The translations under genes were made by a program, and so were the position numbers. Under the pieces are notes generated by a model. The model was not told the origin of the DNA, ran no database searches, and saw only the letters and a program-made list of their open reading frames with translations. From a virus, in IMG/VR virus record IMGVR_UViG_3300045278_000064: DNA of 64,000 nucleotides; one strand, written 5' to 3'. Below, piece after piece: positions 36,278 to 54,300 of the stretch. The first letter of the stretch is position 1; each line of letters starts with the position of its first letter.

Positions 36278-36513
36278 CACGCCGCCGCCTCTCGCCTCAT
36301 GCGCTGGCGATCGCGCTCGGACGTCCCGCCCCAGATCCCCTGCTCGCCCTGCTCGAGCGCGAGAGCGAGGCACTGCTCCCGCACCGGGCAGGCGCGGCAG
36401 ATCCGCTTCGCCTCCTTGCCGGAGAACCCCACCTCGGGGAACCAGAGATCGCCGTCGACCTCCCGGCAGAGCCCTTCGGCCATCCACGGCGCCGGCTTCA
36501 GGTAGTCCTCCAT
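36277..36513 (-). CDS. whiB: WhiB-family transcription factor
   Basis: GLCREVDGDLWFPE..AKRICRACPVREQCL..GIWGGTSERDR. Confidence 0.92.
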   Translation of the reverse strand: MEDYLKPAPWMAEGLCREVDGDLWFPEVGFSGKEAKRICRACPVREQCLALALEQGEQGIWGGTSERDRQRMRREAAA

Positions 36514-39103: not shown

Positions 39104-40554
39104 GCCGCCTCACCGCCCTCGGCGAGCGCCTCGGCGCCGTCGGTCGCGGGGGCGTCGGGGTCGGCGGCGTGGGGGATGCCGGTGGCGAGGAGGATCGCCT
39201 GCTGCTCGACGTCGGTCCACTGGTACCCGGTGCGCTCGAGGAGCTGGCGGAGCGTGCCCTTCGCGCCCCAGTACGAGGAGCCCTGGCGGCCCTCGCCCAT
39301 GTACTTGTGGTCGGCCTTGATACCCCACCAGTCCGCCTCGAGCCAGACGAGAAGCGACAGCGGCCAGGTGGACAGGGCCTTGGTCACCTTGGTCTTGCCC
39401 TCGTTGCCGGTAAGGGCCTGCAGCAGGTCGATGGAGACCTGGTTGTCGCCGTACCCGGTCCAGCCCTGCTTCACGAGCTTCGCGACCAGGTGCTTGACTG
39501 CGACGTCGGCGGTGTCGAGGTCGGGCAGTGTGGCGGCGAGGTGGCGTTCGCGGTGGATCTTCGCGGTGGCGAAGTCGTCGGCATCGAGGTCGTCCCACGG
39601 GTCCGCGGGTTCGGGCTCCGGGTCGGTGCTGTCGGCCGCGCCGTCGGCGGGGTGAAGGGACTCCTGCTGGTCGCAGGCGATCACGAGAGTGCCGACCGGG
39701 ACCGCGCCCAGCACGGGGACGCGAACACCCGCATCGGTGATGATCACGCCGCAGTGCCCGGGGCACGCGGCGTGCTCGTCGGTGAGCAGCGAGACCCACT
39801 CCTCGCCGGTGTGCAGCCCGGCCTCGGCCGCCTCCTCGATCGCGGGTGTGCCCCAGACGCCCGCTTCCACGAGAGTGGTGAGTCCGACGCCCTTCTCGGA
39901 GACGCGGAGGCCGAGCTTCTTGGCCTCCTTCCGGGAGGCCGCGGCCCGGGCGCGCTCCTCGCGACGGCGGCGCGCTGCGGAGACCTCCCAGTCGAAGCGG
40001 TAGGTGCCGGCGGCGGCCTCGAGCTCCTCCACGGCCTCGGGGTCGTCGCTGTACTCCGCGATCACGAGGGCGTCGTCGACGGTGATCTGGCCGCGGTGGA
40101 CCTTCTCCCCGGTGTCGCTGGCGAGCTTCGCGAGCTTCGCCCGATCCTTCACGCGCTGCTTGCCGAGCGCGGTCTGCTTCGCGACCTGGGCCTGGGTCAT
40201 GCCGAGGTCGAGCATGTCCTGGACCAGGCGGGCCTCCTCCACCGCGGTCAGCTGGTCGCGGAGGATGTTCTCCGTCGCCATGAACGCCAGCTGCGCCTTC
40301 GGGTCCGTGAGGTCGTCGCGGACCTGCACCGGCACCTCGGCGAGGCCGAGAGCGTGAGCCGCGGTGAGGCGGCGGTGGCCGGCGAGGACGACGTAGCCCT
40401 CGGTGCCGTCGGGCTCGGGCGCCGCGACGAGGGGGACCTCGACGCCGTGCTCCCGGATCGACTCGGTCAGGTCCTCGACCTGCGCGGCGTCGATGCGGGG
40501 GTTCTGCTCATGCGGGTGCAGCACATCGACGTGCACCATCTGGATCTGCTCCAT
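39100..40554 (-). CDS. ParB/Srx N-terminal domain protein
   Basis: LHPHEQNPR..LTESIREHGVEVPL..VLAGHRRL..ENILRDQL; HTH GMTQAQVAKQT. Confidence 0.88.
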   Translation of the reverse strand: MEQIQMVHVDVLHPHEQNPRIDAAQVEDLTESIREHGVEVPLVAAPEPDGTEGYVVLAGHRRLTAAHALGLAEVPVQVRDDLTDPKAQLAFMATENILRDQLTAVEEARLVQDMLDLGMTQAQVAKQTALGKQRVKDRAKLAKLASDTGEKVHRGQITVDDALVIAEYSDDPEAVEELEAAAGTYRFDWEVSAARRRREERARAAASRKEAKKLGLRVSEKGVGLTTLVEAGVWGTPAIEEAAEAGLHTGEEWVSLLTDEHAACPGHCGVIITDAGVRVPVLGAVPVGTLVIACDQQESLHPADGAADSTDPEPEPADPWDDLDADDFATAKIHRERHLAATLPDLDTADVAVKHLVAKLVKQGWTGYGDNQVSIDLLQALTGNEGKTKVTKALSTWPLSLLVWLEADWWGIKADHKYMGEGRQGSSYWGAKGTLRQLLERTGYQWTDVEQQAILLATGIPHAADPDAPATDGAEALAEGGEAA

Positions 40555-41003
40555 CACTCCTGCTCCTCCTGCTCTGTGCCCGCCTCCATGGCGCGGCGTC
40601 TGATCTGTGCGGAGATCCCGTCTCCGAGCTCGCGCAGCCGATGGCCAAGCGCAAGCAGGTCCCTGTCCTCCATCACCGGGACCGCTGCAGCGACCTCCCG
40701 GCAGAGCCCCGCCGTGACCTCGTCCCGCCACCGCCCGCACCGGGCGTTGTGGTGGTTCCCGCGCCACGACTGCTCCATGTCGCCCCGCTGTCCGGGCGGC
40801 CACGACTTGCACAGCAGCCCGCCGTGCTGATCGCGCCACACCTGGAACAGCCCGACCCCGCCCTCGAGCGCGTACCGCTCGGGGACCAGCGGGGTCCAGA
40901 CCTTCCCGTGCAGCCCCCACGCCCACCACACGTCCGCACCGCAGTCCTCACAGACCGGTGCCGGACGCGCAGGGCGCGGAGTGCCGGGGCGACGACTCCT
41001 CAC
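40554..41003 (-). CDS. Hypothetical Zn-ribbon protein
   Basis: CEDCGADVWW; HNARC; GTGA overlap. Confidence 0.55.
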   Translation of the reverse strand: MRSRRPGTPRPARPAPVCEDCGADVWWAWGLHGKVWTPLVPERYALEGGVGLFQVWRDQHGGLLCKSWPPGQRGDMEQSWRGNHHNARCGRWRDEVTAGLCREVAAAVPVMEDRDLLALGHRLRELGDGISAQIRRRAMEAGTEQEEQE

Positions 41004-41176
41004 CGGCCATGCACCTCCCGGCGAGCGCGGCGCCGGTTCTCGGCGGCGAGGCCCGCGGAGGGGCCGGCCAGGCAGTCCCACAGCACCCACACCACGAGGA
41101 GGAGGACGGCGGCGGCGACGGAGGCGAGGACGAGCTGGACGAGGAACGTCGCGACGAAGAGCAGGACCGCGCTCAT
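41000..41176 (-). CDS. Small membrane protein (absent from the ORF track)
   Basis: MSAVLLFVATFLVQLVLASVAAAVLLLVVWVLW, 58 aa; overlap-coupled. Confidence 0.55.
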   Translation of the reverse strand: MSAVLLFVATFLVQLVLASVAAAVLLLVVWVLWDCLAGPSAGLAAENRRRARREVHGR

Positions 41177-41415
41177 GCGGGGTCACCCCCGCTCGGGCGG
41201 GCCTTGCCGGCGGGGTGCGCGGCCTCGGTGGCGCGGTGCTCGGCGTCGTGCGCGCGCTTCACCCGCGACGCCTCCGCGGCGATGCGCTCGATGCGGGAGA
41301 ACCCGCATGCGCAGCCAACGATGAAGCGCACGTCGTCGTCGCGGAATCCGGCGCGGGTGACCGTCGCTCGGGGAGCGCGGCGGCCGGTGGGGAAGGGGAG
41401 GATGCGGCCGCTCAT
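41173..41415 (-). CDS. Hypothetical protein
   Basis: CACG motif; overlap-coupled. Confidence 0.5.
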   Translation of the reverse strand: MSGRILPFPTGRRAPRATVTRAGFRDDDVRFIVGCACGFSRIERIAAEASRVKRAHDAEHRATEAAHPAGKARPSGGDPA

Positions 41416-41666
41416 GCCGCGACCCGATTCCGGTGAGCCGCCGCGGCGCGACGGGCACGGATACGCTGCTCGAGCTCCTCCACGGACGGGCCGCCTGCGC
41501 AGACCGCCTGCCGGGCTGCTTCCTCGACGCTTGCACCGTCCAGGCCGAGCATCCTCGCTCCCGCGGCCGCGAGGATCCGCTTCAGCTCGTCGCCCTCGAG
41601 GGGCGTGACCGAGAGACGCGCGTCGATCCCCGCCTGCACCTGCTGCTGGATCTGGGTCGTGGTCAT
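41412..41666 (-). CDS. Hypothetical protein
   Basis: MTTTQIQ..; GGPSVEELE. Confidence 0.55.
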   Translation of the reverse strand: MTTTQIQQQVQAGIDARLSVTPLEGDELKRILAAAGARMLGLDGASVEEAARQAVCAGGPSVEELEQRIRARRAAAAHRNRVAA

Positions 41667-41797
41667 GACGGGTCCTTCCTGTGCCGAGCGGGGCGCGGTC
41701 CGAGCTGGTCCTCGACGACGCCGTTGGTGATGTCGCGCGCGAGCGCGCGAGGAGACAGGGCGGTGGCGCGGCGCCGGCCGCGCACGTGCGTGTTCAT
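41663..41797 (-). CDS. Small hypothetical protein
   Basis: 44 aa; ATGA overlaps on both ends. Confidence 0.4.
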   Translation of the reverse strand: MNTHVRGRRRATALSPRALARDITNGVVEDQLGPRPARHRKDPS

Positions 41798-41982
41798 CGG
41801 ATCGCCTCGATGAAGGCGGCGAGCCTGTTCGCCTGAGCGGGGGTGATGTTGAAGTGGTGGTCCCCGGCGCCGATCGGCTCCGCGACGTAGATCCGGATGG
41901 ACAGGAGGTCGTCGTCGGGGGAGTGGCGGGTGATCGGGATCCGGTCCAGTTCGATGGCTGCCTCGTACTGCTCATCGCTCAT
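41794..41982 (-). CDS. Small hypothetical protein
   Basis: 62 aa; overlap-coupled. Confidence 0.55.
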   Translation of the reverse strand: MSDEQYEAAIELDRIPITRHSPDDDLLSIRIYVAEPIGAGDHHFNITPAQANRLAAFIEAIR

Positions 41983-42854
41983 GCCGCGTCACCCCGGCTC
42001 TGGACATCGAGCGCGGGCGCGGTCAGGCCGAGCTTGGTCGCGAGGTGCTGGACGTGGAACTGCAGGACGTAGAGGGTCTGGCGGACCTGCCCGTTGTGGA
42101 GGCGCGGAGCGTTGTGCTGAGGGCGCAGAACGAACCACTCCGAGGAGAGGACTCCCTGGCGGGGCCGCCACTCGTACTCGTCCTCCATCGCCTGCTTGCT
42201 GTGCGACCAGCGAGCACCGACTTGCCGGCGGACGGCGACGCCCTTCTCCTTCATCAGCGCCCGGACCTTCGGGCCCGTGGTGCCGTACTGCGAGGCGAAG
42301 TTGTCGATCGTGACGATGTCCTGGCTCTCCGCCACGAACCGCTGGTGGTAGTCCACGACGGGCTGCTGCTGCTCGAGCTCGTACTCGACGCGGGCCCGGG
42401 CGATCGCCTCGCGGTCAGCGCGGTCCTCGGCCTCGAGCACCATCTGCGCAAGCTCTCGGCGCCCAGGGAGCGCGACGGGCGCGGGCTGGGCGACCTCGGC
42501 CTCGCGGGTCCGGATCGCGAAGTAGGACTGCGCCGCGGCGACCTCGGCCTTGTTCGGGTCGCCATTCATCGCCACGAGGTAGGCGGCGAAGCGGGAGAGC
42601 TCGACGTCGGCCATGCTGGGCCCGCTCGAGGCGACTTTGCGGGATCCCGCAAAGTGCTCGGAGACCACGTGGCCCTGCGCCTCGGCCGACTTCCGGGCCC
42701 GATCGAGCGGGACCTCGAAGTTCCGCCACGCGGAGTAGCCGAGCAGCGGCATCAGCTCGCGGGCGGACCAGAACTCTGCACCATGGGGCCGGGTGCGCTT
42801 GATCGCGTCGAACGGCGAGGCCGCCAGCGGGGTGGAGGGGGTAAGGTCGGACAT
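41979..42854 (-). CDS. Phage antirepressor (DinD/Bro-like N-terminus + KilAC-like C-terminus)
   Basis: EFWSARELMPLLGYSAWRNF..LSRFAAYLVAMNGDPNK; QPVVDYHQRFV. Confidence 0.85.
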   Translation of the reverse strand: MSDLTPSTPLAASPFDAIKRTRPHGAEFWSARELMPLLGYSAWRNFEVPLDRARKSAEAQGHVVSEHFAGSRKVASSGPSMADVELSRFAAYLVAMNGDPNKAEVAAAQSYFAIRTREAEVAQPAPVALPGRRELAQMVLEAEDRADREAIARARVEYELEQQQPVVDYHQRFVAESQDIVTIDNFASQYGTTGPKVRALMKEKGVAVRRQVGARWSHSKQAMEDEYEWRPRQGVLSSEWFVLRPQHNAPRLHNGQVRQTLYVLQFHVQHLATKLGLTAPALDVQSRGDAA

Positions 42855-42913
42855 GGATTGTTCCCTTCTGGGATCACGCGCCCCCGCCCTGCATGGCGGG
42901 GGCGCTCCTGCGT

Positions 42914-43144
42914 TCAGGACTGGGCGGGGACCTCGGCGTCGAGCGCGGCGAGCTCGGCTCGGGCCGCGGCGATGACGCGAGCGGGAACGGTGGCCGGTGC
43001 CAGGTCCAGAAGAGTCCTGACCGCGTCCGCCCGACCGAGGACCAGTCCCTCGAACCGGGCGCTCCGCGGGAGCTCAGCGCTGACTTCCCGAGAGCTGCGC
43101 AGCTGTGCTGCCAACGCCATCAGGGCGTCCGAGTAGGCGCTCAT
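42914..43144 (-). CDS. Hypothetical protein
   Basis: ATGA-coupled. Confidence 0.5.
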   Translation of the reverse strand: MSAYSDALMALAAQLRSSREVSAELPRSARFEGLVLGRADAVRTLLDLAPATVPARVIAAARAELAALDAEVPAQS

Positions 43145-43485
43145 CGGGTCACCGCCGGCTCGAAGACGAGCGGCGCGGCGGCCGCGGCGTAGACGGCGTT
43201 GTCGAGCTCGCAGAGGAGGTCGTACACGTCGTGCTGGTAGCCGGGGTGGGGGACGCCGAAGTCCCGGATGAGGGCCTCGCTCGCACGGTGCACCGCGACG
43301 AGGTCGCGCTGGATGTGCTCGGCACCGCGCTGCTCGGCCTGCTCGTCGGTCTGGAACCGACCGCAGTAGATGCAGACCTCGACCTGGTCGAGGAAGGGGA
43401 ACAGCTCGGCCTCGGTGGGGGACCGGTGCGCGAGAGGGCGGACCGGGACGGTCGCGCGGGGCGCTCGGATCGGGGTGATGGTCAT
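43141..43485 (-). CDS. Hypothetical protein
   Basis: CIYCG motif; AGGAG SD. Confidence 0.55.
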   Translation of the reverse strand: MTITPIRAPRATVPVRPLAHRSPTEAELFPFLDQVEVCIYCGRFQTDEQAEQRGAEHIQRDLVAVHRASEALIRDFGVPHPGYQHDVYDLLCELDNAVYAAAAAPLVFEPAVTR

Positions 43486-43549
43486 GACGGGGCTCCTGGT
43501 CGTCGAGATAGGTCAGGTCGCGGTGGGCACTGCCGGGTAGATTTCGGCC

Positions 43550-44134
43550 ATGGACTGGGTCGGATGGGTCATCAGCGGAGTGGGCCTGCTCGTCGGAGGA
43601 GCGACGCTCGCGGTGACGGTGCCGTCGCTCGTGCTGTCCCGCCGAGCAGAGCGACGCGCGACGGAGCGGTCGGTCGTCGAGTGGTACGCAGGCGAGAGCG
43701 AGCCCGGGCAGGTTTGGGTGACGAACCAAGGCATCGACCCCGCGTTCGAGGTGACCGTCGACGTCTGGGACGGGCGCGACTTCGTCTCCCGCACACGGGC
43801 CACTGCGTTGTTCGGAGACGAGATAAACGCCGTGCTCCCCACCCGTCGAGCTGAGGGCCCCGAGCCCGTCGACCTGCCGACACGGATCACGCCACGGGTG
43901 CCCGACGAACCTCCTGAGGGGGTGCAGCTCCCAACGGGCCTCACCCCACCGGGGCTCCGCCAGATGAACGACGAGCAGCGCGCTCGGTGGGAGCTCCTGA
44001 AGGCCTCGCAGGACTCGGCGGACGCGATGGAAGCCCGGATGCGGGAGAAGGCAGAAGCGGAACAGGTGTCCGTTCGCGTGACCTGGCGGTCAGCGCTCGG
44101 AACCTGGTCGACGACGATGGTGGACCTCTCGTGA
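43550..44134 (+). CDS. Single-TM protein (moron, antisense to the early operon)
   Basis: N-terminal TM WVGWVISGVGLLVGGATLAVTV. Confidence 0.65.
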   Translation: MDWVGWVISGVGLLVGGATLAVTVPSLVLSRRAERRATERSVVEWYAGESEPGQVWVTNQGIDPAFEVTVDVWDGRDFVSRTRATALFGDEINAVLPTRRAEGPEPVDLPTRITPRVPDEPPEGVQLPTGLTPPGLRQMNDEQRARWELLKASQDSADAMEARMREKAEAEQVSVRVTWRSALGTWSTTMVDLS

Positions 44135-44273
44135 ACGGCTGATCCCCTCGCGCCGCAGCATCCGCCGCAAGATCCATCCCTGAATGCACACCGAGACGCC
44201 GATGCAGACGATCGCGATGCCTTGGAGAAGGTCGAGCACTGAGTACCTCCGTGGTTGACGGGCAGAGCGCGCA

Positions 44274-44624
44274 TCACGCCACCTGCTTCCGGCGAGCGCC
44301 ACGCGACTCGGCCGCGTCGGCTCGGCGCGCATGGGTCCTCTCCGGGGTGTGCGAGTGCGTCCTATCGGTGGTCACTCGGGTCACGAAAAGGTCGTCGACG
44401 TCGAGATGCAGGTAGTGCGCGATGCGCAGTGCCGGATCGGTGTTCAGGGTCTTCGCCTCTCCGCTGATGAGGCGGCGCATATACGTGTGCGACCTCCAGC
44501 CGGCGGCGCGGGCGAGTTCGCGCTGCGAGACGCCGAGCTTGGTCATGCGACGTACCAGCTTGTCGCGGTCGATCAGTTCCATCCAGATCGCTCCAACGGT
44601 GGGGGTGGTGTGAACAAGGTGCAC
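44274..44624 (-). CDS. Cro-like XRE HTH regulator
   Basis: GVSQRELARAAGWRSHTYMRRL; GGAGG SD; divergent from the repressor. Confidence 0.85.
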   Translation of the reverse strand: MHLVHTTPTVGAIWMELIDRDKLVRRMTKLGVSQRELARAAGWRSHTYMRRLISGEAKTLNTDPALRIAHYLHLDVDDLFVTRVTTDRTHSHTPERTHARRADAAESRGARRKQVA

Positions 44625-44643
44625 GTTATCCTCCGGGTGGTCG

Positions 44644-44685
44644 AGTGTCCACTGTCAGTATCTAGTAGACACCCTCTAGTGTCCA
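44644..44685. promoter_or_regulatory. Candidate operator half-sites between cro and cI
   Basis: AGTGTCCA at 44644 and 44678 with an inverted TAGACAC at 44666. Confidence 0.5.
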
Positions 44686-44840
44686 TGCGCAAGCCCCGAG
44701 TGTTCGCCAGAATGTTGCCGATGCGCTGGGGTGCCGACTACCGGCACAACAATCTGAGAAACTTCTAGTGCCCACCTGGTTCCTGCGTGTCGGTGACCAG
44801 CGATTGGCGTACCTTCTCCTGCCACCCGAGGATTGCCGCC

Positions 44841-45425
44841 GTGAACGCACTACACCCGCTTGGTCAGCTCATCCAGTCCGTGGAGGACTCGAAGGGCTGG
44901 ACGATGCGAGAGATCGCTCGGCGCGCTGAGCGGGCTCAGGTTCCGCTGTCGAACGCGTACCTGGGGAAGCTGAAGCGGCAAGGCATCCGGTCGATCACGA
45001 TCGAGACCATCCACGCCCTGGCGGTCGGTCTGGATCTGCCCGAGCGGATCGTGGCCACGGCTGCGCTCGAGACCATGGGCGTTCACGACATCGGGTCAGC
45101 CGAGAGCCGGGCCGCCGTCGCGATCGCACGGGACCCTGAGCTCTCCGAACGGGACCGCAGGATCCTCCTCGCGGTCGTACGGGAGATGCAGGGTGAACAG
45201 GACGAGGAACAGCGCGCCGGCTCCGCAGCGAGCGGCAGCGACAGCATGGAAGATCCGCCTCAGCCAGATGGGGTTACCCCACGCGCCGGCGGACGCCGGC
45301 TGACGCGGGCCGACTTCGACCGCGCCGCCGACGACTCCGGGCCGTCGCTGCTCGAGGCCGACGACGCCCGCGCCGCGGCGCGCGGGGAGGAGTCCCAGGA
45401 CACAGGGAGTGACGAGCCGGCATGA
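44841..45425 (+). CDS. CI-like immunity repressor (XRE HTH)
   Basis: GWTMREIARRA..LSNAYLGKL..IHALAVGLDLP; divergent from cro. Confidence 0.85.
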   Translation: MNALHPLGQLIQSVEDSKGWTMREIARRAERAQVPLSNAYLGKLKRQGIRSITIETIHALAVGLDLPERIVATAALETMGVHDIGSAESRAAVAIARDPELSERDRRILLAVVREMQGEQDEEQRAGSAASGSDSMEDPPQPDGVTPRAGGRRLTRADFDRAADDSGPSLLEADDARAAARGEESQDTGSDEPA

Positions 45426-46258
45426 CCTTGAATGGGGCCCCGTTCGACTGGGCGCGGGCGATCACCGAGCTGCGTTCCTCGCCCGATCAGGCGAACGATG
45501 CGCCGACCCTCGTCGGCGAGCTCGCACGGAGCGGTGCAGGCAGCGCCCCGATGCTGTTCCTCGCCGATGACGACAAGCAGTACTGGGTCAAGTTTCCCGG
45601 CAACCCGCAGGGCACGCAGACCCTGGTTGCCGAGACGATCGTCGCGGCCATCGCCCCGCTCATCGACGCGCCCACTCGAGAGACCCGTCGGCTCCGCATC
45701 CCACCCGCCCTTGTGGGTACCCCGTACGGCAAGGACCAGCCGCGTCAAGTACCGTCCGGCCTCGCGCACGGCTCCCTGCTCATCGAGAACGCCACCGAGC
45801 AGGTCGACGAGCTTCGGTTTGCTCGACGAGACGACAACGCACGTCGCATCCCCCGGCTTCTCGTCCTCTGGGACTGGGCGATGGGGACCGACGCGCAATG
45901 GCTGCACGACGATGACGCCAACAGCACGATCTGGTCGTTCGACCACGGCCTGTGGCTCGACGCCGGTCCAGGCGCATGGACCCCGGAGGGCATACGTACC
46001 GCCGCAGAGGGCGCATGGACACTGCAAGGGACGATCCCACCAGGGATCAGCGCCACGGAGTTCTATAGCGCGGCGACCGCCCTCGAGGCCGTAGCGCCTG
46101 AACAGATAGCAGCAGCCGTGGCGAACGTCCCTCCCGAATGGAAGCCCGACAATGGACTCCTCGGCGCACTCGGTGAGACCCTGTACGCACGCCGTCGCGG
46201 CGCCGCCGCACGGGCCCGAGCACTCGGCACAAGCATCACGAAGGGAGGCCGGGCATGA
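45422..46258 (+). CDS. HipA-like (HipA_2 type) Ser/Thr kinase
   Basis: YWVKFPGNPQG (ATP Lys); LVAET (alphaC Glu); MGTDAQWL (catalytic Asp); WSFDHGL (Mg-binding Asp). Confidence 0.8.
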   Translation: MTLNGAPFDWARAITELRSSPDQANDAPTLVGELARSGAGSAPMLFLADDDKQYWVKFPGNPQGTQTLVAETIVAAIAPLIDAPTRETRRLRIPPALVGTPYGKDQPRQVPSGLAHGSLLIENATEQVDELRFARRDDNARRIPRLLVLWDWAMGTDAQWLHDDDANSTIWSFDHGLWLDAGPGAWTPEGIRTAAEGAWTLQGTIPPGISATEFYSAATALEAVAPEQIAAAVANVPPEWKPDNGLLGALGETLYARRRGAAARARALGTSITKGGRA

Positions 46259-47112
46259 CCTACCACTACTGGACCATCCGCTGGGTCCCCGACGTCGTCC
46301 GCGGCGAGTTCGTGAACCTCGGCGTGCTCGTCGGCGACGACGAACGCCAGGACTGGGCGCTCGACTTCGTTGAAGACTTCGGACGTGCGAACAGCCTCGG
46401 CGGCGACGCTGCACGGGCCGCAAGCTTCCTCCGTTCCCTCAGGAACCGAGTCGACTCAGCCCTCCTCCCTGACGTCGAGGCGTGGGGGCAGCGACCCCTC
46501 AACTTTGCCGACGTGGAGCGGCTACGAGCGCACCAGTCCAACGCCGTGCAGCTCGCAGCCCCGCGACGCCTGGCCGTCGACAGCGCCGCCCAGGGCCTCC
46601 AGATCATCTACCCGCTGATGGTCGAGGAACGCGCACGGCGGACGCGAGACACGACGAGGACGCGACTCGTGAATGCCCTCGAGAACGACCTGCTCATGGG
46701 CACGCACCCCGACCTGGTCACACGCCGCCGGACGCAAGCGCGGGCGGACGGCCAGCGCGGCTCCTTTGACCTCGTCGCCCAGACCCCGGGCCACCTCCAA
46801 CTCGCCCATGCCTGGTCGTTCACCACCTCGAACGTCGAGTACACCGCGGAGAAGCACCAAGCCTGGGCCTGGTTCGTTCGGATGCTCCGCCACGAGGGCG
46901 GAGAACTCCAGACCCGAGACAACGCCGTCATCCGAGTCGTCGCGGACGCGCCACTACTCGTGATCCACGACAGGCCGAAGACCAACGCGCAGCGCGAGGT
47001 GTTCGAGAGCGCCCGGGTCTCGTGGGAGGCGCTCGACATTCGTGCGTTCGAGGACGTCGAGATGCGCGACGCGGTCGGCATGATGCGACAGGAACTCGCC
47101 TTAGCTGGCTGA
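46255..47112 (+). CDS. DUF3037-domain protein with a C-terminal extension
   Basis: YHYWTIRWVPDVVRGEFVNLGVLV signature; ATGA-coupled to the kinase. Confidence 0.82.
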   Translation: MTYHYWTIRWVPDVVRGEFVNLGVLVGDDERQDWALDFVEDFGRANSLGGDAARAASFLRSLRNRVDSALLPDVEAWGQRPLNFADVERLRAHQSNAVQLAAPRRLAVDSAAQGLQIIYPLMVEERARRTRDTTRTRLVNALENDLLMGTHPDLVTRRRTQARADGQRGSFDLVAQTPGHLQLAHAWSFTTSNVEYTAEKHQAWAWFVRMLRHEGGELQTRDNAVIRVVADAPLLVIHDRPKTNAQREVFESARVSWEALDIRAFEDVEMRDAVGMMRQELALAG

Positions 47113-47144
47113 CCTGTCGGTCGTTCGCCCTATGGTCCAGTGCC

Positions 47145-47609
47145 ATGCGCGAGTCCCCGGCACCGGCCCCGATCTACCACCCGTGGCGGGTCCTCGGCCG
47201 GCACTGGCCGCACGTCGAGGTCGAGCACACCGATGAACTCCCGCCCGGGCGCCGAGCGGACACCAACGGGATCGACGAGATCCGGATGCGGCGCCGCCTG
47301 CTCCAGGTCGAGCGGCGCTGCTCCCTCACCCACGAGCTGATCCACCTCGAGCACGGCCACACCGGCCGGTGCGCCCCCGCGCACGAGGCCGAGGTCGACC
47401 GCGAGGCCGCGCGGCGACTCATCCCATGGCCGCGCCTGCTCGCCGCCGTGCGCTGGGCCCGCTCCGAGGAGGAGCTGGCCGACGAGCTCTGGGTGACCGT
47501 CCGGGTCCTCCGCGCCCGGGTCGCCGCGCTCCACGCCGACGAGCTGATGCAGATCGCCCGCGCCGCCCACGACGTCCACCACTCCCTGCCCTGGAGCGAG
47601 ACCCAATGA
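47145..47609 (+). CDS. ImmA/IrrE-family metallopeptidase
   Basis: RRCSLTHELIHLEHGH (HExxH); AARRLIP; LADELWV. Confidence 0.88.
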   Translation: MRESPAPAPIYHPWRVLGRHWPHVEVEHTDELPPGRRADTNGIDEIRMRRRLLQVERRCSLTHELIHLEHGHTGRCAPAHEAEVDREAARRLIPWPRLLAAVRWARSEEELADELWVTVRVLRARVAALHADELMQIARAAHDVHHSLPWSETQ

Positions 47610-47743
47610 CCCCCGACCCTCGCCCCGCCGAGCAGCTCGAGCTCAGCCTCGACCTCCGCGAGCCCGTCCCGGCACCGTGGTGGGCCGAGCTGCTCGAGCA
47701 CGAGACCCAGGGCGATCAGGACACCGGGTGGTGGGGCGCGTGA
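47606..47743 (+). CDS. 45-aa peptide
   Basis: ATGA overlap with the ImmA stop; MTPDPRPAEQLELSLDL. Confidence 0.4.
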   Translation: MTPDPRPAEQLELSLDLREPVPAPWWAELLEHETQGDQDTGWWGA

Positions 47744-47853
47744 GCGACTCCACGTCCAGGGAGGTCACGGAAGGACTACGGCCCCCGTTCGGCCGTCCAG
47801 AATCTGCCTACGATCCAACCATCAACCACCCCATTCGAAGGAGCACCACGACC

Positions 47854-48594
47854 ATGAACCGCACCGCCCGAGCCGCCGCACTCGCCGCGGCCGCCACCCT
47901 GCTGCTCGCCGCATGCGGCGGTGGCTCCGAGCCAACCGATGCCGGCGCCGAGGCCAGCGCTGAGCAGACGACCGACGAGTCGGACTCCTGGCCGATCGTT
48001 GAAGACGAGGACGGCAACGTCGTCGAGAACCCCGAGGACGAGCCGGTGAGCGACGAGGGAGGGGTGGAAGACCTGGCCGACGTGGCCGAGTTCGACGGCG
48101 AAGAGGTCTCCCTCGACCTCGACGCCCTCATGGACTCGAAGATGTCCACTGCTTCGACCTACTACCTCGAGGGTCTCACCGGGGTGAAGGCAATGGCGGA
48201 GATCGGGGTGGAGGGGCCGGAGAAGATGGAGGAGATGCGCGAGCTCGTCGGCGCCGAGCCCGTCACCTACATCCGCCTCGACGTGGACAACCGCGAGGGC
48301 ACCGACGAGATCAGCATGTACGAGTGGTTCATGTACGACGCGGAGGGCAACGAGTACGCCTTCCAGAACCTCAACTACCAGGCCGTCGAGTGGGACGAGA
48401 TCCTCGACGACGGCTCCGACGCCGACATCGCAGCCAACGACCTCGCATGGGAGATCGAGGACGACTCCGCGAACCCGGGCGAGCGCAACGAGCAGTGGCT
48501 CGTCGGGCCCGGCAACCTCCCCGACGAGGTCTCCGTGATGTCCGCCAAGTCGAGCTCGTTCACCGACGAGTTCACTCCGCTGCCGGTCCGCTGA
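47854..48594 (+). CDS. Acidic lipoprotein
   Basis: AAGGAG SD; lipobox LLAAC; strongly Asp/Glu-rich. Confidence 0.8.
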   Translation: MNRTARAAALAAAATLLLAACGGGSEPTDAGAEASAEQTTDESDSWPIVEDEDGNVVENPEDEPVSDEGGVEDLADVAEFDGEEVSLDLDALMDSKMSTASTYYLEGLTGVKAMAEIGVEGPEKMEEMRELVGAEPVTYIRLDVDNREGTDEISMYEWFMYDAEGNEYAFQNLNYQAVEWDEILDDGSDADIAANDLAWEIEDDSANPGERNEQWLVGPGNLPDEVSVMSAKSSSFTDEFTPLPVR

Positions 48595-48715
48595 CCGACC
48601 AACCGCACGACCACGGCCCTCCGCGCGCCCCACGGCGCCGGAGGGCCGCGCCCTACGCTCCCCACCCCGGCGAGCGCAACGGCGTGCAGTAGCGATGCCG
48701 GGGGAGGAGAGCGTG

Positions 48716-50110
48716 ATGGTGAAGAGGGGGCGGCGGGAGCGCGCCGCAGTGTACGTCCGCCAGAGTACGTACCGCGAGGAGAGCATCAGCCTCGAGCTGC
48801 AGGAGACCGCGTGCCGGGAGTACGCGGACCGGTGCGGGTACGAGGTCGTCGCGCTCGAAACGGACCCCGGCGTCAGCGGGCGGACGTTCGCGCGCCCCGG
48901 GGTGCAGGCCGTGATGTCGATGGTGGAGTCCGGCGACGTCGACGTGATCCTGCTGTGGAAGTGGTCGCGGCTGTCGAGGAACCGGCTCGACTGGTATCTC
49001 GCGGCCGACCGGGCGCAGCAGGCCGGTGGACGGATCGAGTCGTCCACGGAGCCGATCGACACCTCGACGTCGATCGGGCGGCTCGCGCGCGGGATGATGA
49101 TCGAGATCGCTGCGTTCGAGTCCGAGCGTGCGGGTGACCAGTGGAAGGAAGCGCAGTCGCGGCGCGTGCGCCGGGGTCTCCCGCACGACGGCAAGCCGCG
49201 GTTCGGGTACGAGTACGACCCGGAGGGGAAGATTTTCCGGCCCGATCCCGTGACGGGGCCGGTCCTCGCCGGGCTCTACAGGCGCTTCACCGCGGGGGAG
49301 ACGATGTACTCGCTGTGCGTGTGGCTGAACGCGCAGGGCATCCCGACTGCGACGGGCAGCAACGTCTGGACCGCCGCGAACCTCCGCCAGATCATGGATC
49401 GGCAGTTTGCGGTCGGGAGGGTGTATCACCAGGGCGTGTGGCATCCCGGTGCGCACGAGCCCCTGATCACCGAGGCCGAGTACGCGGCCTACCGGCAAGC
49501 TCGGAAGACCCGGGCGGCAGCCCCGCGGAGGGAGGCGTCGGACTACCTCCTCGCCGGGCTCGTGCGCTGCGGCGTGTGCGGACGGGCTCTCACCGGCGCA
49601 TCGGCGCGCGGTCGCTGGTTCTACTACCGATGCTTCGCCTCGAGGTTCACCGGCAGGCACAGCTACGCCCAGGTGCCCACGAAGACCGTCGAGGACGCCG
49701 TCTACGACAAGCTCGTCGAGACCGCCGCGGACATCGAGACCACCGCGATCCCCGAGACGCGCCCCGTGGCTGCGGACACCGCGGCGCTGAAGCGCACGAT
49801 CCAGCAGCACAAGACGTCGCTCGGCCGCCTCGCCGTGCAGCTCGCCGAGGACGTCATCAGCGCCGACGCCTACGCCGCCGCCGCACCCGCGCTCGAGCAG
49901 AAGCTCGCCCTCGCCCGCGAGGCACTCGAAGCCGCGGCCGCCGAGACCGTCGTCCCCCCGATGCACGACGCCGTCGTCAGCCTCGTCACCGACTGGGACA
50001 TCCTCCCCACCGCGCACCGGCGAGCGCTCCTCGCCCGCGCCGTCCAGAGCGTGACCGTCGACTTCAACGACGAGAAGCGAGTCGACGTCACCATGCGAGC
50101 CCGCACCTGA
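48716..50110 (+). CDS. Large serine integrase
   Basis: VYVRQS (catalytic Ser); DPGVSG; WKWSRLSRN; recombinase domain; RCGVCG..YYRC Zn ribbon; coiled coil. Confidence 0.95.
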   Translation: MVKRGRRERAAVYVRQSTYREESISLELQETACREYADRCGYEVVALETDPGVSGRTFARPGVQAVMSMVESGDVDVILLWKWSRLSRNRLDWYLAADRAQQAGGRIESSTEPIDTSTSIGRLARGMMIEIAAFESERAGDQWKEAQSRRVRRGLPHDGKPRFGYEYDPEGKIFRPDPVTGPVLAGLYRRFTAGETMYSLCVWLNAQGIPTATGSNVWTAANLRQIMDRQFAVGRVYHQGVWHPGAHEPLITEAEYAAYRQARKTRAAAPRREASDYLLAGLVRCGVCGRALTGASARGRWFYYRCFASRFTGRHSYAQVPTKTVEDAVYDKLVETAADIETTAIPETRPVAADTAALKRTIQQHKTSLGRLAVQLAEDVISADAYAAAAPALEQKLALAREALEAAAAETVVPPMHDAVVSLVTDWDILPTAHRRALLARAVQSVTVDFNDEKRVDVTMRART

Positions 50111-50144
50111 CCCGAGTACGTGTTGGCGAACCCTCACGACGCTG

Positions 50145-50609
50145 ATGGGGAACGTCACCGGCGACCCCACCGAGCACCGGCAGGACGACGGATCCACGAC
50201 CGTGAAGCTGAGGATCGCGGTCACGGGGCGCTACTTCAACACCGCCTCGCAGGACTTCAGCGACCGAAGGACGGAGTTCATCACGGTCTTCGCACGGAAG
50301 AGCCAGGGGCAGAACGTCCTGCGCTCGGTCCGCAAGGGCCAGCCGCTGGTGGTCACGGGCCGGCTGAACACCTCGGAGTGGACGGGGGAGGACGGAGTCG
50401 CTCGCTTCTCGCTGAACCTGCAGGCCGAGTCCATCGGCCATGACCTCACGTTCGGCACGTCCGTGTTCACGAGGCCCCTACGGGCGAAGGACGTCCCGAA
50501 CGTCGACGCGGACTCGGGGGAGATCCTCACGAGCGCCGGTTCCGCGGACCCGGAGGACGCGCTCACCGATGCGGACGAGGACGAGGACTCGCTCGCCCCG
50601 GCGTTCTGA
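50145..50609 (+). CDS. ssb: Single-stranded DNA-binding protein paralogue, apparently 5'-truncated
   Basis: GNVTGDP..LRIAVT.R..TEFITV..KGQPLVVTGRL..W..AESIGHDL; acidic tail ending APAF. Confidence 0.85.
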   Translation: MGNVTGDPTEHRQDDGSTTVKLRIAVTGRYFNTASQDFSDRRTEFITVFARKSQGQNVLRSVRKGQPLVVTGRLNTSEWTGEDGVARFSLNLQAESIGHDLTFGTSVFTRPLRAKDVPNVDADSGEILTSAGSADPEDALTDADEDEDSLAPAF

Positions 50610-50650
50610 GCTCGTCGGCCGAGTGGCCGACGCGGGGCGGTTCGCGGGGC

Positions 50651-51205
50651 TCAGGCCCCGGACTGCAGCGTCTGCACGAGCGCCGCGGAGATCTCCGGCA
50701 GCAGCGCGGCGCCGAGGACATAGCCGTCCTCGTCGCCGCGGTGCACCGCCGACCAGGTCGTGCCGTCGGTGAGCGCCGCGACCACCACGCGCAGGGCCCG
50801 ACCCGACGGCAGCGCCGCGCCGCTCGTGCGGTCCTCGCCGTCCCGGACCGACCAGGCCGACGGCGCGAGATCGCAGGCGATCGCCCCACCGGCGGCGAGG
50901 TCCGGCCACTGCACGGACTCGAGCGCCGCGAGCGGATCCGCCGTGGCCGGCGCGGAGGGGGAGGCCGACTCGTCGAGGTCGATCGGCGTGAGGTGGAGGG
51001 CGTCGTGGGCGTTGGCGCCCTCGCCCTCGGCCCCCAGCAGGGCGGCGAGAGCGGGCGAGGCGGCGATCAGCTCGGTGCTGCGCGCGAGGGCGAACAGTCG
51101 CGGGGCGGCCAGCGGGCCCTCCTCGACGTGACGGGCGACCTCGAGCACGGCGGCGGCCAGAGCGGCGGTCGGGGCGTCCAGCGGGTCCTGGGCAGGAGTC
51201 GTCAT
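50651..51205 (-). CDS. PPA1309-family protein (host)
   Basis: AAAVLEVARHV..PRLFAL..LESVQWP; divergent from UPF0182 as in other actinobacteria. Confidence 0.7.
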   Translation of the reverse strand: MTTPAQDPLDAPTAALAAAVLEVARHVEEGPLAAPRLFALARSTELIAASPALAALLGAEGEGANAHDALHLTPIDLDESASPSAPATADPLAALESVQWPDLAAGGAIACDLAPSAWSVRDGEDRTSGAALPSGRALRVVVAALTDGTTWSAVHRGDEDGYVLGAALLPEISAALVQTLQSGA

Positions 51206-51359
51206 CGGATCGAGAGGTCCCTTACAGGTTCGGCCTGACAGAATGGGGTGACCGTCGCGCGACACGGCGGCACCACACTGTACCCGGATCGCGTTCTCGG
51301 ACCCCACGATGTCGCGGGGCCCCGTGTGCGCTCCGACATCGAGGCACCAGAGGTTATCT

Positions 51360-54300
51360 GTGAGTTTCTCCGCCCAGTTCGGCGACATGCCGAGGCCGCG
51401 CCCCCGACCTGCTCCCGACGGAGGCTCCGGCGAGCCCCGGAAGATCTCACCGCTGATGATCACGGTGATCGTGCTCGGCGCGCTCGTCGTGCTGCTCGTC
51501 CTCGCCTCGGAGGTGTGGACGAAGTACCTGTGGATGGACCAGCTCGAGTTCACCGACGTGCTCGTCACCCGCTGGGTGACCCAGGCGCTGCTGTTCGTGG
51601 CAGGGTTCGTGGTCTTCGCGGTGCCGCTGTTCCTGAGCCTGCGCATGGCCTACACGAAGCGTCCCGTGTACCCGCCGATCACGCGGGAGCAGGAGGCGCT
51701 CGAGCAGTTCCGCTCCGCGGTGGACCCGCTGCGCCGCGGCCTGACCTACGGCGCGCCGGTCGTGATCGGCTCCTTCGGCGGACTCGCGCTGTCCCGCCGC
51801 TGGCAGGACGTGCAGCTGTTCCTGCACCCCCAGGACTTCGGGCAGACCGATCCCATCTTCGGCAACGACATCTCCTTCTACGTCTTCACCCTCCCGGTGA
51901 TCGACGTGCTCATCTCCTTCGGGCAGTTCGTGCTGCTCGTCTCGATCGTCGGCGCCCTCATCGGCCACTTCGTCTACGGCGGCGTGAGCTGGGGACAGGA
52001 GAGCGGCCTCGAGGTCACGCGCACCGCGCGCCGGCACCTCGGCGTGCTCGCGGCGATCTACGTGCTGCTTCTCGGCGCCGGGCACTGGTTCCAGCGCTAC
52101 GACCTGCTCACCGCCGTCCACACCCGCTTCGAGGGCGCCTCCTACGCGGACGTCCACGCGATCCTGCCCGCGCAGACGATCCTCGCGATCGCCGCCGTCG
52201 TGGTCGCGGCCCTGTTCGTGGTGTGGATCTTCCGCTCCGACTGGCGCATCCCCGCGATCGGCGCCGGGCTGATGATCCTGTCGACCCTCGCCGTCGGCAA
52301 CCTCTACCCCTGGGCGATCCAGCAGTTCCAGGTCCAGCCCAACGAGCGCGCGCTCGAGCAGACCTACATCCAGCACAACATCGACGCGACCCGCACCGCG
52401 TTCAACCTCGACGGCGTCGAGGAGGTGCCCTACACGGCCACCACCGACGCGACCTCCGGCGCGCTGCGCGCGGACGCCTCCACGACCGCGCAGATCCGCC
52501 TGATGGATCCCAACGTCATCTCGCCCACCTTCGAGCAGCGCGAGGCGAACCGCCGCTACTGGGGCTTCGACGACGTGCTGAGCGTGGACCGCTACGAGAT
52601 CGACGGCGAGCTGCAGGACACCGTGATCGGCGTGCGCGAGCTGCGCCCGGACAAGTTCGGCCTCAGCGACCGCTCCTGGGTGGACCAGCACATCACCTAC
52701 ACCCACGGCTACGGCACCGCCGCCGCCCACGGCAACCGGCGCAACTCGGACGGTGAGCCGAGCTTCCTGCAGTCGGGCGTGCCAGGCGACGGCGCCTTCG
52801 GGGACTACGAGGAGCGGGTGTACTTCGGGCGCCACTCCCCGGACTACTCGATCGTCGGAGCGCCCGAGGGCGCCGAGCCGCAGGAGTTCGACTACCAGCG
52901 CGGCAGCACGGATGACGAGCAGGGCGGGGAGCAGGTCTACAACACCTTCCAGGGCGACGGCGGCCCCGCCGTCGGCAGCTTCTTCAACCAGCTGCTGTAC
53001 GCGATCAAGTTCCGCGACCCGAACATCGTGATCTCGAACTACCTCAACGAGGAGTCGCAGATCCTCTACGACCGCGATCCGCAGCATCGCGTCCGCGAGG
53101 TCGCGCCCTTCCTGTCGCTGGACTCCCAGATGTATCCGGCCGTGGTCGACGACCAGATGGTGTGGGTGGTCGACGGGTACACCACCACGACCGAGTACCC
53201 CTACGCGCAGTCGGTCAACCTCGACCAGACCGTCAACGACTCCCAGACCGACCCCAACAGCTCCGCCGCGAATCGGCAGCGTTCGGCGAACTACATGCGC
53301 AACTCCGTCAAGGCGACCGTGAACGCCTTCGACGGCTCGGTGACGCTGTACACCTGGGACACCGCGGACCCGATCCTGAAGTCCTGGTCCGAGGTGTTCC
53401 CCGACGCGCTGCGGCCCGCCTCCGAGATCAGCGGCGAGCTCATGTCGCACCTCCGCTACCCCGCGGACTACTTCAAGGCGCAGCGCCAGATCCTCTCGAC
53501 GTACCACGTCACCGACGCGGACGACTTCTTCACCCAGCAGGACTTCTGGCAGATCCCGCCGGACCCGACGGTCCCCGCGCCCACCAACCCCGACGGCACC
53601 GCGGGCCAGCAGGCCCCGCAGCCGCCGATGTACCTGACCATGCAGATGCCCGACGAGGACGCGCCGCGCTTCACGCTCTCCTCGAGCTTCATCCCCTCCG
53701 AGGGGCAGAACGTGCTCACCGGCTTCCTCGCCGTGGACTCGGAGACCGGCAGCACCGAGGGCAACCCCGCCGAGACCTACGGCGACATGACCCTGCTGGT
53801 GCTGCCCACCTCGAACCCGGTCAACGGCCCCGGCCAGGTGCAGGCCACGTTCAACGCGGAGCCGAACGTCTCCCAGGCGCTGAACCTGCTGCAGCAGGGC
53901 GCCTCCGAGGTCATCAACGGCAACCTGCTCACCCTGCCCGTCGGCGGCGGTCTGCTCTACGTACAGCCCGTGTACCTGCAGTCCTCGCAGACCGGCGGCG
54001 GCACCCAGTACCCGCTGCTGCAGATGGTGCTGGTCTCCTTCGGTGACCGGATCGGCTTCGCGCCGACGCTCGACGAGGCGCTCGACCTGGTCTTCGGCGG
54101 CGACTCGGGAGCCTCCGCCGGTGACGCGGAGGTGACCGACACCGACGCGCCCAGCGGCACGGCCGATGCGGAGACCGGTGAGGGCACCGTCGACGAGGGC
54201 GAGGGCACGGACGAGCCCGCCGAGGGCGAGCAGGAGGCCCCGGCGGCCTCGGGCTCCGCCCAGGAGCGGCTCGACCAGGCACTGGCCGACATGGACACCG

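Follow-up and report, generated by a model that had tools for sequence, protein, structure and literature searches.

The repressor operon and the prophage switch

The window analysed here is a 64,000-nucleotide stretch of viral DNA (IMG/VR record IMGVR_UViG_3300045278_000064). Within it, three plus-strand genes encoding an immunity-repressor-like HTH protein, a HipA_2 kinase and a DUF3037 protein are chained by ATGA overlaps (44841-47112; Table 1). Inspection of the sequence places these overlaps at 45422-45425 and 46255-46258, each consisting of the stop codon of the upstream gene and the start codon of the next, as a sequence-only reading of this DNA had described; that reading had also put the kinase and its partner in the repressor operon, between the repressor and an ImmA-like protease, and this placement holds. 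The pair (45422-47112) lies within a complete siphovirus-like prophage, with the ImmA/M78 protease and then a serine integrase downstream. GC3 is 0.78 in the kinase gene and 0.85 in the partner gene versus 0.92-0.95 in neighbouring genes, a signature of cargo.

Table 1. Features of the repressor operon and of the adjoining switch region
Feature	Position	Strand	Remarks
Cro-like HTH gene, 116 aa	44274..44624	-	divergent; heads leftward early operon; Pfam HTH_26/HTH_3
Divergent switch region	44625..44840	.	operator-like repeats; function inferred from repeat and promoter searches
Immunity-repressor-like HTH protein, 194 aa	44841..45425	+	GTG start at 44841; ORF open from 44787
HipA_2-family Ser/Thr kinase, 278 aa	45422..46258	+	predicted toxin/effector (HipA of HipAD); PF20613, phrog_3162
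DUF3037 partner, 285 aa	46255..47112	+	predicted neutraliser/sensor (HipD); PF11236, PADLOC PDC-M66B
ImmA/IrrE-like M78 metalloprotease, 154 aa	47145..47609	+	presumed anti-repressor protease of prophage; PF06114, phrog_87
45-aa ORF	47606..47743	+	ATGA overlap with M78 stop codon
Predicted lipoprotein	47854..48594	+	signal peptide, lipobox LLLAAC; between protease and integrase
Large serine recombinase (prophage integrase)	48695..50110	+	Pfam Resolvase + Recombinase + Zn_ribbon_recom; prophage end

The product of the Cro-like gene matches the transcriptional regulators phrog_3 and phrog_8, and an ANT/Bro antirepressor identified by Pfam (41979-42854) lies downstream of it in the leftward operon. 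Within the switch region, a repeat search found the operator-like repeat TC(G/T)AGTG(T/C)CCA at 44641, 44675 and 44764, and listed with these repeats the sequence TCTAGTAGACACC at 44661; one sigma-70-like promoter lies on the minus strand (44685-44657), and a sequence search found no promoter-like or terminator-like sites between 44841 and 50110. Beyond the metalloprotease, a 43-aa ORF occupies in the related locus L002 the position equivalent to the 45-aa ORF, and Gordonia phages too have a small gene after the metalloprotease. Pfam and PHROG searches gave no family match for the lipoprotein.

The HTH gene probably starts at its GTG codon, in agreement with the MNALHPLGQ start of the relative L007, and tblastn aligns the HTH protein with annotated Gordonia and Mycobacterium phage immunity repressors at 30-35% identity (E 1e-7 to 3e-12). 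The protein has a conserved acidic, Ser/Thr-rich C-terminal tail, whose motif is common to CarolAnn gp45, Vasanti gp41, BeeGee gp48 and Marteena gp42. The protease carries HELIH at residues 63-67 and matches Peptidase_M78 (PF06114; 23.1 bits versus a cut-off of 22) and phrog_87 (1.6e-15); its homologues are annotated as metalloprotease in 250 actinophage records, and CarolAnn gp42 is 45% identical to it. The locus presents an ImmR/ImmA-type layout, in which a repressor with an XRE-type HTH shares an operon with an M78 protease bearing HExxH, accompanied by an adjoining integrase and a divergent Cro-like gene, and an operon of this type is also present in Squirty, Mbo4, Vasanti, CarolAnn, BeeGee and Marteena. 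Judged by gene content, order and motifs, the HTH and M78 proteins are an ImmR/ImmA-type prophage switch.

The two proteins could instead be read as dedicated CapH/CapP-like regulators that would lift repression of the kinase pair when DNA is damaged, in which case all four genes would make up a self-contained defence cassette. The HTH protein does have a weak PADLOC capH match (E 7e-4), but the PADLOC search gave no capP match, the HTH protein resembles actinophage immunity repressors, and CarolAnn gp45 has been shown to be a repressor (PMC6426606). The order HTH, kinase, partner, M78 is kept in the relatives L002, L003 and L007 although their integrases differ, and the stretch from repressor tail through M78 is co-inherited, a mosaic unit at 45259-47640 (repressor tail, kinase, partner and M78) aligning with L002 as one block at 85% DNA identity; yet relatives have exchanged the N-terminal DNA-binding part of the repressor, as would be expected of a determinant of immunity specificity, and the HTH gene faces the Cro-like gene across the operator-like repeats. 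Moreover, the repressor-M78-integrase operon carries no cargo in Squirty and Mbo4 and other cargo in CarolAnn, Vasanti and BeeGee, the last three sharing the tail motif, and of 21 genomic loci with the kinase-partner pair, not one has the HTH or the M78 gene. The CapH/CapP-type identity was rejected on these grounds, and a self-contained four-gene cassette is very unlikely.

The kinase and its DUF3037 partner

What is observed for the pair comprises domain identities, folds, conservation of catalytic residues, strict synteny, purifying selection and genomic context. The kinase matches HipA_2 (PF20613) over residues 41-152 only, scoring 28.5 bits (cut-off 27; E 1e-6), and phrog_3162 at 2e-15; the partner matches DUF3037 (PF11236) over residues 5-123, at 34.5 bits against a cut-off of 22.6, so that both families proposed by the sequence-only reading score above their Pfam cut-offs. 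The Pfam match of the kinase is marginal and falls in its N-terminal half. With E values up to 1e-3 accepted, the kinase family comprises 873 cluster representatives, and HipA_2 is matched by 67 of the 77 relatives aligned here (26-37% identity). Among phage records, tblastn found the kinase in Corynebacterium phages LGCM-V/VI only, and found no match to the partner.

The kinase fold that had been surmised from motifs is borne out by an AF2 model (pLDDT 94) that matches CtkA (Z 15.5), PI4K-II (Z 14) and HipA (Z about 10.5). The motifs themselves are present as they had been quoted, and are conserved in the alignment of 77 relatives, where K57 (YWVK) and D174 (DHG) are invariant and conservation reaches 90% or more at E71, G155, D157, Q159 and H175. 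The short loop GTDAQ, which had been singled out as unusual, differs in a profile alignment from the N-x-D-R-x-x-D-N of another HipA_2 clade by a 3-residue deletion and by Gln for Asn. Such a shortened loop (D-x-Q versus D-R-x-x-x-N) could mean that activity or substrate differs. Both genes are under purifying selection: against L002, dN/dS is 0.19 in the kinase gene and 0.11 in that of the partner.

The partner consists of an N-terminal DUF3037 domain (about residues 1-123) and a C-terminal PD-(D/E)xK-like, or DUF1829-like, domain (about 134-282). Foldseek matches of its AF2 model (pLDDT 83) include AF1548, VC1899, Can2, Card1 and PfoI, with PD-(D/E)xK matches at E about 1e-3. In the Atlas, the C-terminal domain reaches TM 0.64/0.68 to a cluster with DUF1829 in 33% of its members, and TM 0.57-0.63 to the nuclease domains of Card1, XamI and BanI. 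A restriction-endonuclease-like domain of about 150 residues had been proposed from the motif FDLVAQ..LQLAHAWSF, which corresponds to partner residues 171-189 and lies inside this domain, and the proposal stands at the level of fold; by sequence, the C-terminal domain and those of five homologues gave no Pfam DUF1829 match, with noise only at E up to 10. D172 and Q182 of the nuclease-like domain are present, and the position of the catalytic Lys is occupied by Ala, Gly, Ser or Val, the (D/E)xK lysine being missing in 10 of 10 partner homologues. As modelled, then, the C-terminal domain is restriction-endonuclease-like (DUF1829-like) in fold and without the catalytic lysine. A role for the partner as nuclease effector was rejected on the absence of this lysine from all 10 homologues, and is unlikely given the residues that replace it. 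The Atlas had pointed to a fusion with an S24 peptidase in acidobacterial partners, but none of nine loci scanned showed one.

The two genes are strictly associated. Each partner homologue, in all 21 genome loci and in all metagenome contigs that have one, is immediately preceded by a kinase homologue in the same orientation, and a natural fusion exists (A0A317N2E7, 557 aa, named HipA-like kinase), residues 284-555 of which align to the whole partner. Prediction of the kinase-partner complex gave an ipSAE of 0.47 versus 0.00 for the best control, which was rated weak support: 58 of 80 solved complexes reach the ipSAE mark, as do 2 of 110 mismatched pairs, and the passes at 0.60 or under include only 7 of the 80 solved complexes, yet both mismatches that passed.

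Relation to HipAD and the cargo slot of actinophage repressor operons

The sequence-only reading had presented the pair as an uncharacterised system, a claim that falls since the combination is already catalogued. HipA-like kinase plus DUF3037 is the PADLOC candidate PDC-M66, studied in the Retron-Sda1 operon (PLoS Biol 2025), where deletion of the kinase abolishes defence against Bas51, deletion of the DUF3037 gene is toxic, and the type III retron RT and ncRNA are dispensable for the defence conferred by the pair (PMC12548924). The same two-domain pair lies beside a retron there, in a different phylum, whereas no retron is present at the window locus. DS-6, which is HipAD, defends E. coli, and a catalytic mutant of its kinase loses defence (DeWeirdt et al., Science 2026, PMC13092281); for this system PMC13092281 also cites Brenes & Laub (Cell Host Microbe 2025). 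The guess that the pair is an anti-phage system is supported, the Retron-Sda1 copy and DS-6/HipAD both being defensive (PMC12548924, PMC13092281).

According to the supplement of PMC13092281, DS-6A (WP_000389051.1, 249 aa) is HipA_2 by HHpred and was tested as the D139A mutant, and its gene precedes and overlaps by 4 nt the one for DS-6B (WP_000210934.1, 275 aa), in which DUF3037 spans 7-125 and DUF1829 spans 163-260, the latter assigned with an HHpred probability of only 0.78 (PMC13092281). The window pair likewise comprises a small HipA_2 kinase (278 aa) and a DUF3037 protein (285 aa), in the same order and with the same 4-nt start/stop overlap; both pairs are carried by prophages, and the C-terminal domain of the window partner, which resembles DUF1829 by fold only, may correspond to that of DS-6B. 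Read by eye, motifs of DS-6A and the window kinase pair off as YVLK/YWVK, NADRT/GTDAQ, IDHN/FDHG and PEEW/PPEW, and the catalytic D139 of DS-6A appears by motif to correspond to D157. The similarity is, however, at profile or motif level only, the window kinase has three residues fewer in its catalytic loop (D-x-Q), and the window pair belongs to a high-GC actinobacterial host and sits between a repressor and an M78 protease.

The sequence-only reading had also suggested checking that PADLOC lacks the pair, and the outcome is divided: the partner matches PDC-M66B (2.4e-8, over residues 2-64 only), whereas the kinase matches no PADLOC model at E up to 10, PDC-M66A included, nor does any of its 77 relatives. 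The absent PDC-M66A match reflects the reach of the PADLOC model rather than defining biology. In the survey of neighbourhoods, expected to show enrichment in defence islands and immunity regions, three genomes (Microbacteriaceae or actinobacterial) have type I R-M genes adjoining the pair, and none of the 21 genome loci has the HTH or M78 gene.

A canonical HipBA type II toxin-antitoxin system was considered and rejected, HipA_2 alone being detected in the 278-aa kinase and the upstream HTH protein matching phage immunity repressors. HipBA and HipBST share with the window pair the HipA-superfamily kinase fold (Z about 10) and the scheme, predicted here, of a growth-arresting toxin neutralised by a partner. 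They differ in that the window pair has no HipB-type HTH antitoxin, its kinase lacks the N-terminal domains of HipA (278 versus about 440 aa), and its predicted neutraliser is a DUF3037 protein encoded downstream.

Repressor and ImmA genes had been supposed to be usually neighbours; in Squirty and Mbo4 they are, but in actinophages one to three other genes often stand between the repressor and the ImmA-like protease. Nor is the coupling of the pair to the repressor the novelty it was taken for: in lambda cI-rexAB and in CarolAnn 45-44-43, defence genes are cotranscribed with the repressor (PMC6426606). The likeness is one of locus logic, a two-gene defence cargo directly downstream of the immunity repressor, and in CarolAnn it extends to position, since gp44 and gp43, a validated RexAB-like defence pair (PMC6426606), lie between the repressor gp45 and the metalloprotease gp42 as the window pair does. 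The CarolAnn pair nevertheless consists of a DUF4747 protein and a membrane protein, unrelated to the kinase and DUF3037 protein, and is not toxic on its own.

A closer parallel is offered by the Gordonia phages Marteena, EMsquaredA and ZiggyZoo, whose repressor-metalloprotease slot holds gp40, annotated as a serine/threonine kinase, and gp39. The former is a HipA_2 kinase (PF20613 is precomputed for its relatives), and the gp39-type partner is DUF3037-like (hhalign probability 93%, E 3.6e-7). Comparisons of family profiles relate the Marteena pair, gp40 and gp39, to the window families, with probabilities of 93% and 91%, profiles being needed for this, as single-sequence hhalign gives about 3%. 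Kinship with the window pair is thus at profile level only, and these phages differ further in their canonical D-R-x-x-D-N catalytic loop and in an extra 280-aa gene (gp41) before the kinase; no reported function of gp40-gp39 was found in the literature. HipA_2/DUF3037-like pairs occur in the repressor operon of three deeply diverged actinophage lineages, represented by the window clade, by the clade of Marteena and by Corynebacterium phage LGCM-VI.

The pair is best read as a divergent actinobacterial HipAD (DS-6/PDC-M66) pair, carried as lysogen-expressed cargo in the repressor-metalloprotease slot, with a probability of roughly three in four.

Proposed mechanism and significance

Toxicity, binding, defence and expression are predicted for the pair from its relatives and its context. 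In a lysogen, the repressor promoter would drive repressor, kinase and partner as a single translationally coupled unit, cotranscription being suggested by the ATGA overlaps, by a stretch free of internal promoter and terminator, and by precedent. Six RNA-library runs from ant metagenomes yield contigs that cover 32-52 kb evenly, lytic and lysogenic genes alike, and therefore say nothing on lysogenic expression. The DUF3037 domain of the partner would bind the N-lobe of the kinase and hold the kinase inactive, as the published genetics of relatives and the weak complex prediction suggest. Infection by another phage would then release or activate the kinase, the variable, nuclease-like and catalytically degenerate C-terminal domain of the partner being a likely sensor or DNA-binding part. 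The kinase would phosphorylate an essential component of the host or, possibly, a component of the phage, stopping growth and phage production in the style of abortive infection. Aminoacyl-tRNA synthetases are the targets of canonical HipA kinases. The sequence-only reading had left undecided which protein is the effector; the published genetics of relatives, together with a partner that has no catalytic Lys, favour the kinase as predicted toxin/effector and the DUF3037 protein as predicted neutraliser.

A pair with such properties might serve mainly as a prophage-stabilising addiction module or as a lysogeny-lysis regulator, and not in warding off other phages: if the prophage were lost or the repressor operon shut off, a stable kinase would be set free and bring cell death or arrest, or the kinase would tune induction. 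The genetics of relatives are indeed toxin-antitoxin-like, deletion of the DUF3037 gene being toxic (PMC12548924), but relatives also defend when expressed outside any prophage (PMC12548924, PMC13092281). Similarly, within the immunity operon the pair is flanked by the repressor and the protease, and is inherited in one block with these flanks (45259-47640), yet the genome loci with neither HTH nor M78, three of them beside type I R-M genes, show it apart from any such switch, and in CarolAnn the same slot carries unrelated defence cargo (PMC6426606). A main role of this kind is unlikely. Very unlikely is a functional wiring of the pair into the ImmR/ImmA switch, with the kinase, once freed in a doomed, infected or damaged cell, or its partner acting on the repressor tail or on M78, an idea prompted by the recurrence of pairs in the operon of three actinophage lineages and by co-inheritance of the repressor tail-M78 block. 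If true, activation of defence would either go hand in hand with prophage induction or prevent it.

Read as HipAD cargo, the copy at 45422-47112 is a distant relative of a system validated in E. coli and not a new kind of system. Its new part is modest: a divergent actinobacterial clade, missed by the PADLOC kinase models, with a shortened catalytic loop. The known range of the HipAD/DS-6 family thereby comes to include high-GC Actinobacteria as well as the temperate phages of this group, an actinobacterial kinase clade emerges that PADLOC 2.0 models miss, and Marteena, EMsquaredA and ZiggyZoo provide cultured Gordonia phages with a related pair in the cargo slot, open to direct testing.

A kinase and DUF3037 pair in a prophage lysogeny operon

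Because structural, tail and endolysin genes lie upstream (terminase, head protease or portal-like protein, major capsid protein, tape measure protein, tail fibres, endolysin), the region forms the lysogeny arm of what looks like a complete prophage of siphovirus type, in a window of 69.5% G+C. ORF calls, Pfam, phrog and translation define seven plus-strand genes here, the pair included (table below), and the two ATGA overlaps described in the sequence-only reading occur exactly at 45422-45425 and 46255-46258. An ANT/Bro antirepressor gene also lies on the Cro-like side of the 216-bp divergent repressor/cro intergenic region that separates it from the HTH gene; that region holds three copies of the 11-nt repeat TC(G/T)AGTG(T/C)CCA and a related 13-mer, all probably operators. 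The GC3 of the pair is 0.78 and 0.85, compared with 0.92-0.95 in neighbouring genes, as expected of acquired cargo.

Features of the window and of related loci
Feature	Location	Strand	Remark
Cro-like HTH gene	44274-44624	-
Repeats (11-nt, 13-mer)	44641-44776		Intergenic
HTH gene	Open from 44787, likely start GTG 44841	+	Repressor-like
Repressor tail motif	45259-45425
Kinase gene	45422-46258	+	278 aa
Partner gene	46255-47112	+	285 aa
M78/ImmA-like protease	47145-47609	+	154 aa; HELIH at residues 63-67
Trp-rich ORF	47606-47743	+	45 aa; ATGA overlap with protease stop codon
Predicted lipoprotein	47854-48594	+	Between protease and integrase
Large serine recombinase	48695-50110	+
Nuclease-type gene, SNIPE/T5orf172/MUG113 (metagenome contig)	L003:1407-2825		472 aa; between repressor and kinase
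Type I R-M genes (HsdR, HsdM) beside the pair (Microbacterium and an actinobacterial MAG)	L014:3907-7104; L015:3738-6920 and 10664-12271; L017:3892-7263
Marteena gp41	L042:2031-2873		280 aa; unannotated
Marteena gp34, FIC domain	L042:7639-8901

The 45-aa ORF is kept as a 43-aa ORF in the metagenome contig L002, and Gordonia phages carry a small gene (DUF3263 or HTH) at its position. The lipoprotein, with a lipobox (LLLAAC) and an acidic mature part, had no match in family searches and might act as a superinfection-exclusion or surface factor. Positions 32001-52000 recur letter for letter in many ant-metagenome runs, some from libraries labelled metatranscriptomic; contigs from the latter give even coverage across the whole prophage, a pattern that suggests DNA carry-over or an induced phage.

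Relationship to HipAD

The domain assignments of the sequence-only reading were recovered by HMM search, and the pair it described is real. The Pfam HipA_2 match of the kinase (28.5 bits, barely over the 27-bit threshold) spans the N-terminal half only; the protein also matches phrog_3162, and among 1.84 billion cluster representatives a profile search with an E limit of 1e-3 gave 873 relatives. HipA_2 is matched by 67 of 77 full-length relatives, in whose alignment K57 and D174 are invariant and conservation is 90% or higher at E71, D137, N139, R142, G155, D157, Q159 and H175. The short loop, earlier considered unusual, is a trait of the clade, its G-x-D-x-Q aligning by profile with N-x-D-R-x-x-D-N of another HipA_2 clade through a three-residue deletion. 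AlphaFold2 modelled the kinase with high confidence (pLDDT 94, pTM 0.92); structural matches of the model are CtkA (Z 15.5), PI4K type II (Z 14), CotH and Fam20 (both at Z about 12), and HipA, at Z about 10.5 across some 205 residues.

The partner carries DUF3037 at residues 5-123 (34.5 bits) and matches the PADLOC model PDC-M66B (2.4e-8). Its model (pLDDT 83) has two domains, the second of which (about 134-282) resembles PD-(D/E)xK nucleases (AF1548, VC1899, Can2, Card1, PfoI, Bax1) consistently, though at marginal E-values, matches the Card1, XamI and BanI nuclease domains in the ESM Atlas, and aligns with an Atlas cluster partly carrying DUF1829 (TM 0.64/0.68). The suggested restriction-endonuclease fold thus holds at the level of fold, but not by sequence, where a Pfam search of the domain gave no match. 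D172 and Q182 are conserved; because all ten homologues have Ala, Gly, Ser or Val at the catalytic-Lys position, a nuclease was rejected and we read the domain, from its residues, as a putative binding or sensor module. Some Acidobacteriota clusters of the ESM Atlas join DUF3037 to a LexA-like Peptidase_S24, a fusion not found in nine acidobacterial loci scanned; what follows DUF3037 at the C-terminus thus seems exchangeable.

Each of 21 loci in species-representative genomes (Microbacterium, Leucobacter, one actinobacterial MAG and many Acidobacteriota) has a kinase homologue that ends at the partner start, as do all metagenome contigs, and a 557-aa 'HipA-like kinase domain-containing protein' in AlphaFold DB is a natural fusion in which residues 284-555 match the partner over its full length. 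Against L002, dN/dS is 0.19 for the kinase and 0.11 for the partner, indicating purifying selection, and 0.42, above both, for the flanking M78 protease. The predicted complex joins the kinase N-lobe (29-34, 47, 94-97, 100) to the DUF3037 domain (1-3, 104-108, 117-122) with an ipSAE of 0.47 versus 0.00 for the highest-scoring of three controls, rated by the tool as weak support: of 80 solved complexes 58 attain its mark, as do 2 of 110 mismatched pairs, and passing values of 0.60 or less come from only 7 of the 80 solved complexes but from both of those mismatches.

According to the PLoS Biology 2025 retron study, DUF3037 has a strong association with HipA-like proteins, and PADLOC names such pairs PDC-M66; in that study, kinase deletion abolished defence against Bas51 and deletion of the DUF3037 gene was toxic (PMC12548924). 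The DefensePredictor study (Science 2026, PMC13092281) validated DS-6, renamed HipAD, a HipA-related kinase with a DUF3037+DUF1829 protein; catalytic mutation removed the defence, and the A:B complex scored an ipTM of 0.76-0.79 in AlphaFold3. Its supplement describes DS-6A (249 aa, HipA_2 by HHpred, mutant D139A) and DS-6B (275 aa, DUF3037 at 7-125, DUF1829 at 163-260 with probability 0.78), the kinase first with a 4-nt overlap. The first description of HipAD, from E. coli prophages, is attributed to Brenes & Laub 2025. Architecture and short motifs agree with those of the window's pair. Since pairs of this kind are already catalogued as PDC-M66 and validated as HipAD, the proposal of a new system falls. 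The likeliest interpretation, with a probability of about three in four, is that the two genes form a toxin/neutraliser defence system of HipAD type which the lysogen would make along with the repressor; for the window's copy we infer expression, binding, toxicity and defence alike.

Cargo between repressor and protease

Phages of Gordonia, Mycobacterium and Rhodococcus encode 250 homologues of the protease, and the HTH protein matches annotated immunity repressors of these phages. Their common plan is a leftward Cro, then rightward immunity repressor, cargo, metalloprotease, small gene and integrase. The cargo slot is empty in Squirty and Mbo4 and holds one gene in Vasanti, two in CarolAnn (gp44 and gp43), three in BeeGee, and three (gp41, the 'serine/threonine kinase' gp40, and gp39) in Marteena, EMsquaredA and ZiggyZoo. 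CarolAnn gp44/gp43 form a RexAB-like defence pair, cotranscribed with the repressor and necessary and sufficient against cluster CZ phages, an arrangement its authors likened to lambda cI-rexAB (PMC6426606). Profile alignment relates the gp40 family, among whose relatives PF20613 is present, to the window's kinase family (91% probability) and the gp39 family to the partner family (93%, E 3.6e-7). In Corynebacterium phage LGCM-VI the operon also contains a HipA_2/DUF3037 pair, though here it follows the protease and immediately precedes the integrase. In Marteena, gp41 lies ahead of the kinase in the repressor operon, and the FIC-domain gene gp34 and two tyrosine integrase genes are close by; this is likely further lysogen-expressed cargo.

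Away from prophages the pair stands alone; type I R-M genes directly adjoin it in three Microbacteriaceae or actinobacterial genomes, a defence-island context. A role in prophage addiction or induction control is unlikely, and that the HTH and M78 proteins are dedicated CapH/CapP-like regulators is more improbable still, because the pair functions and occurs without these neighbours and they occur without it.

In the metagenome contigs L002, L003 and L007 the gene order is likewise HTH, kinase, partner and M78, and tyrosine integrases come next; the extra nuclease-type gene of L003 indicates that the slot can stack more cargo. DNA homology to L002 (85%) begins within the repressor gene at 45259 and stops at 47640, so that the DNA-binding part and operators are exchanged while the repressor C-terminal tail, pair and protease travel as a block. 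The breakpoint falls just ahead of a tail motif, AA-R/D-R/D-G ... GE.LRD ... GEE..D.G.E..A, that is common to actinophage immunity repressors linked to an M78 protease, whatever their cargo (also loci L037, L040, L041 and L042, the last being Marteena). Thus the motif belongs to the repressor-protease module rather than to the kinase pair, and it may be a recognition or cleavage region of the protease. The location is of a known kind, and the window's pair is a divergent addition to a known system.
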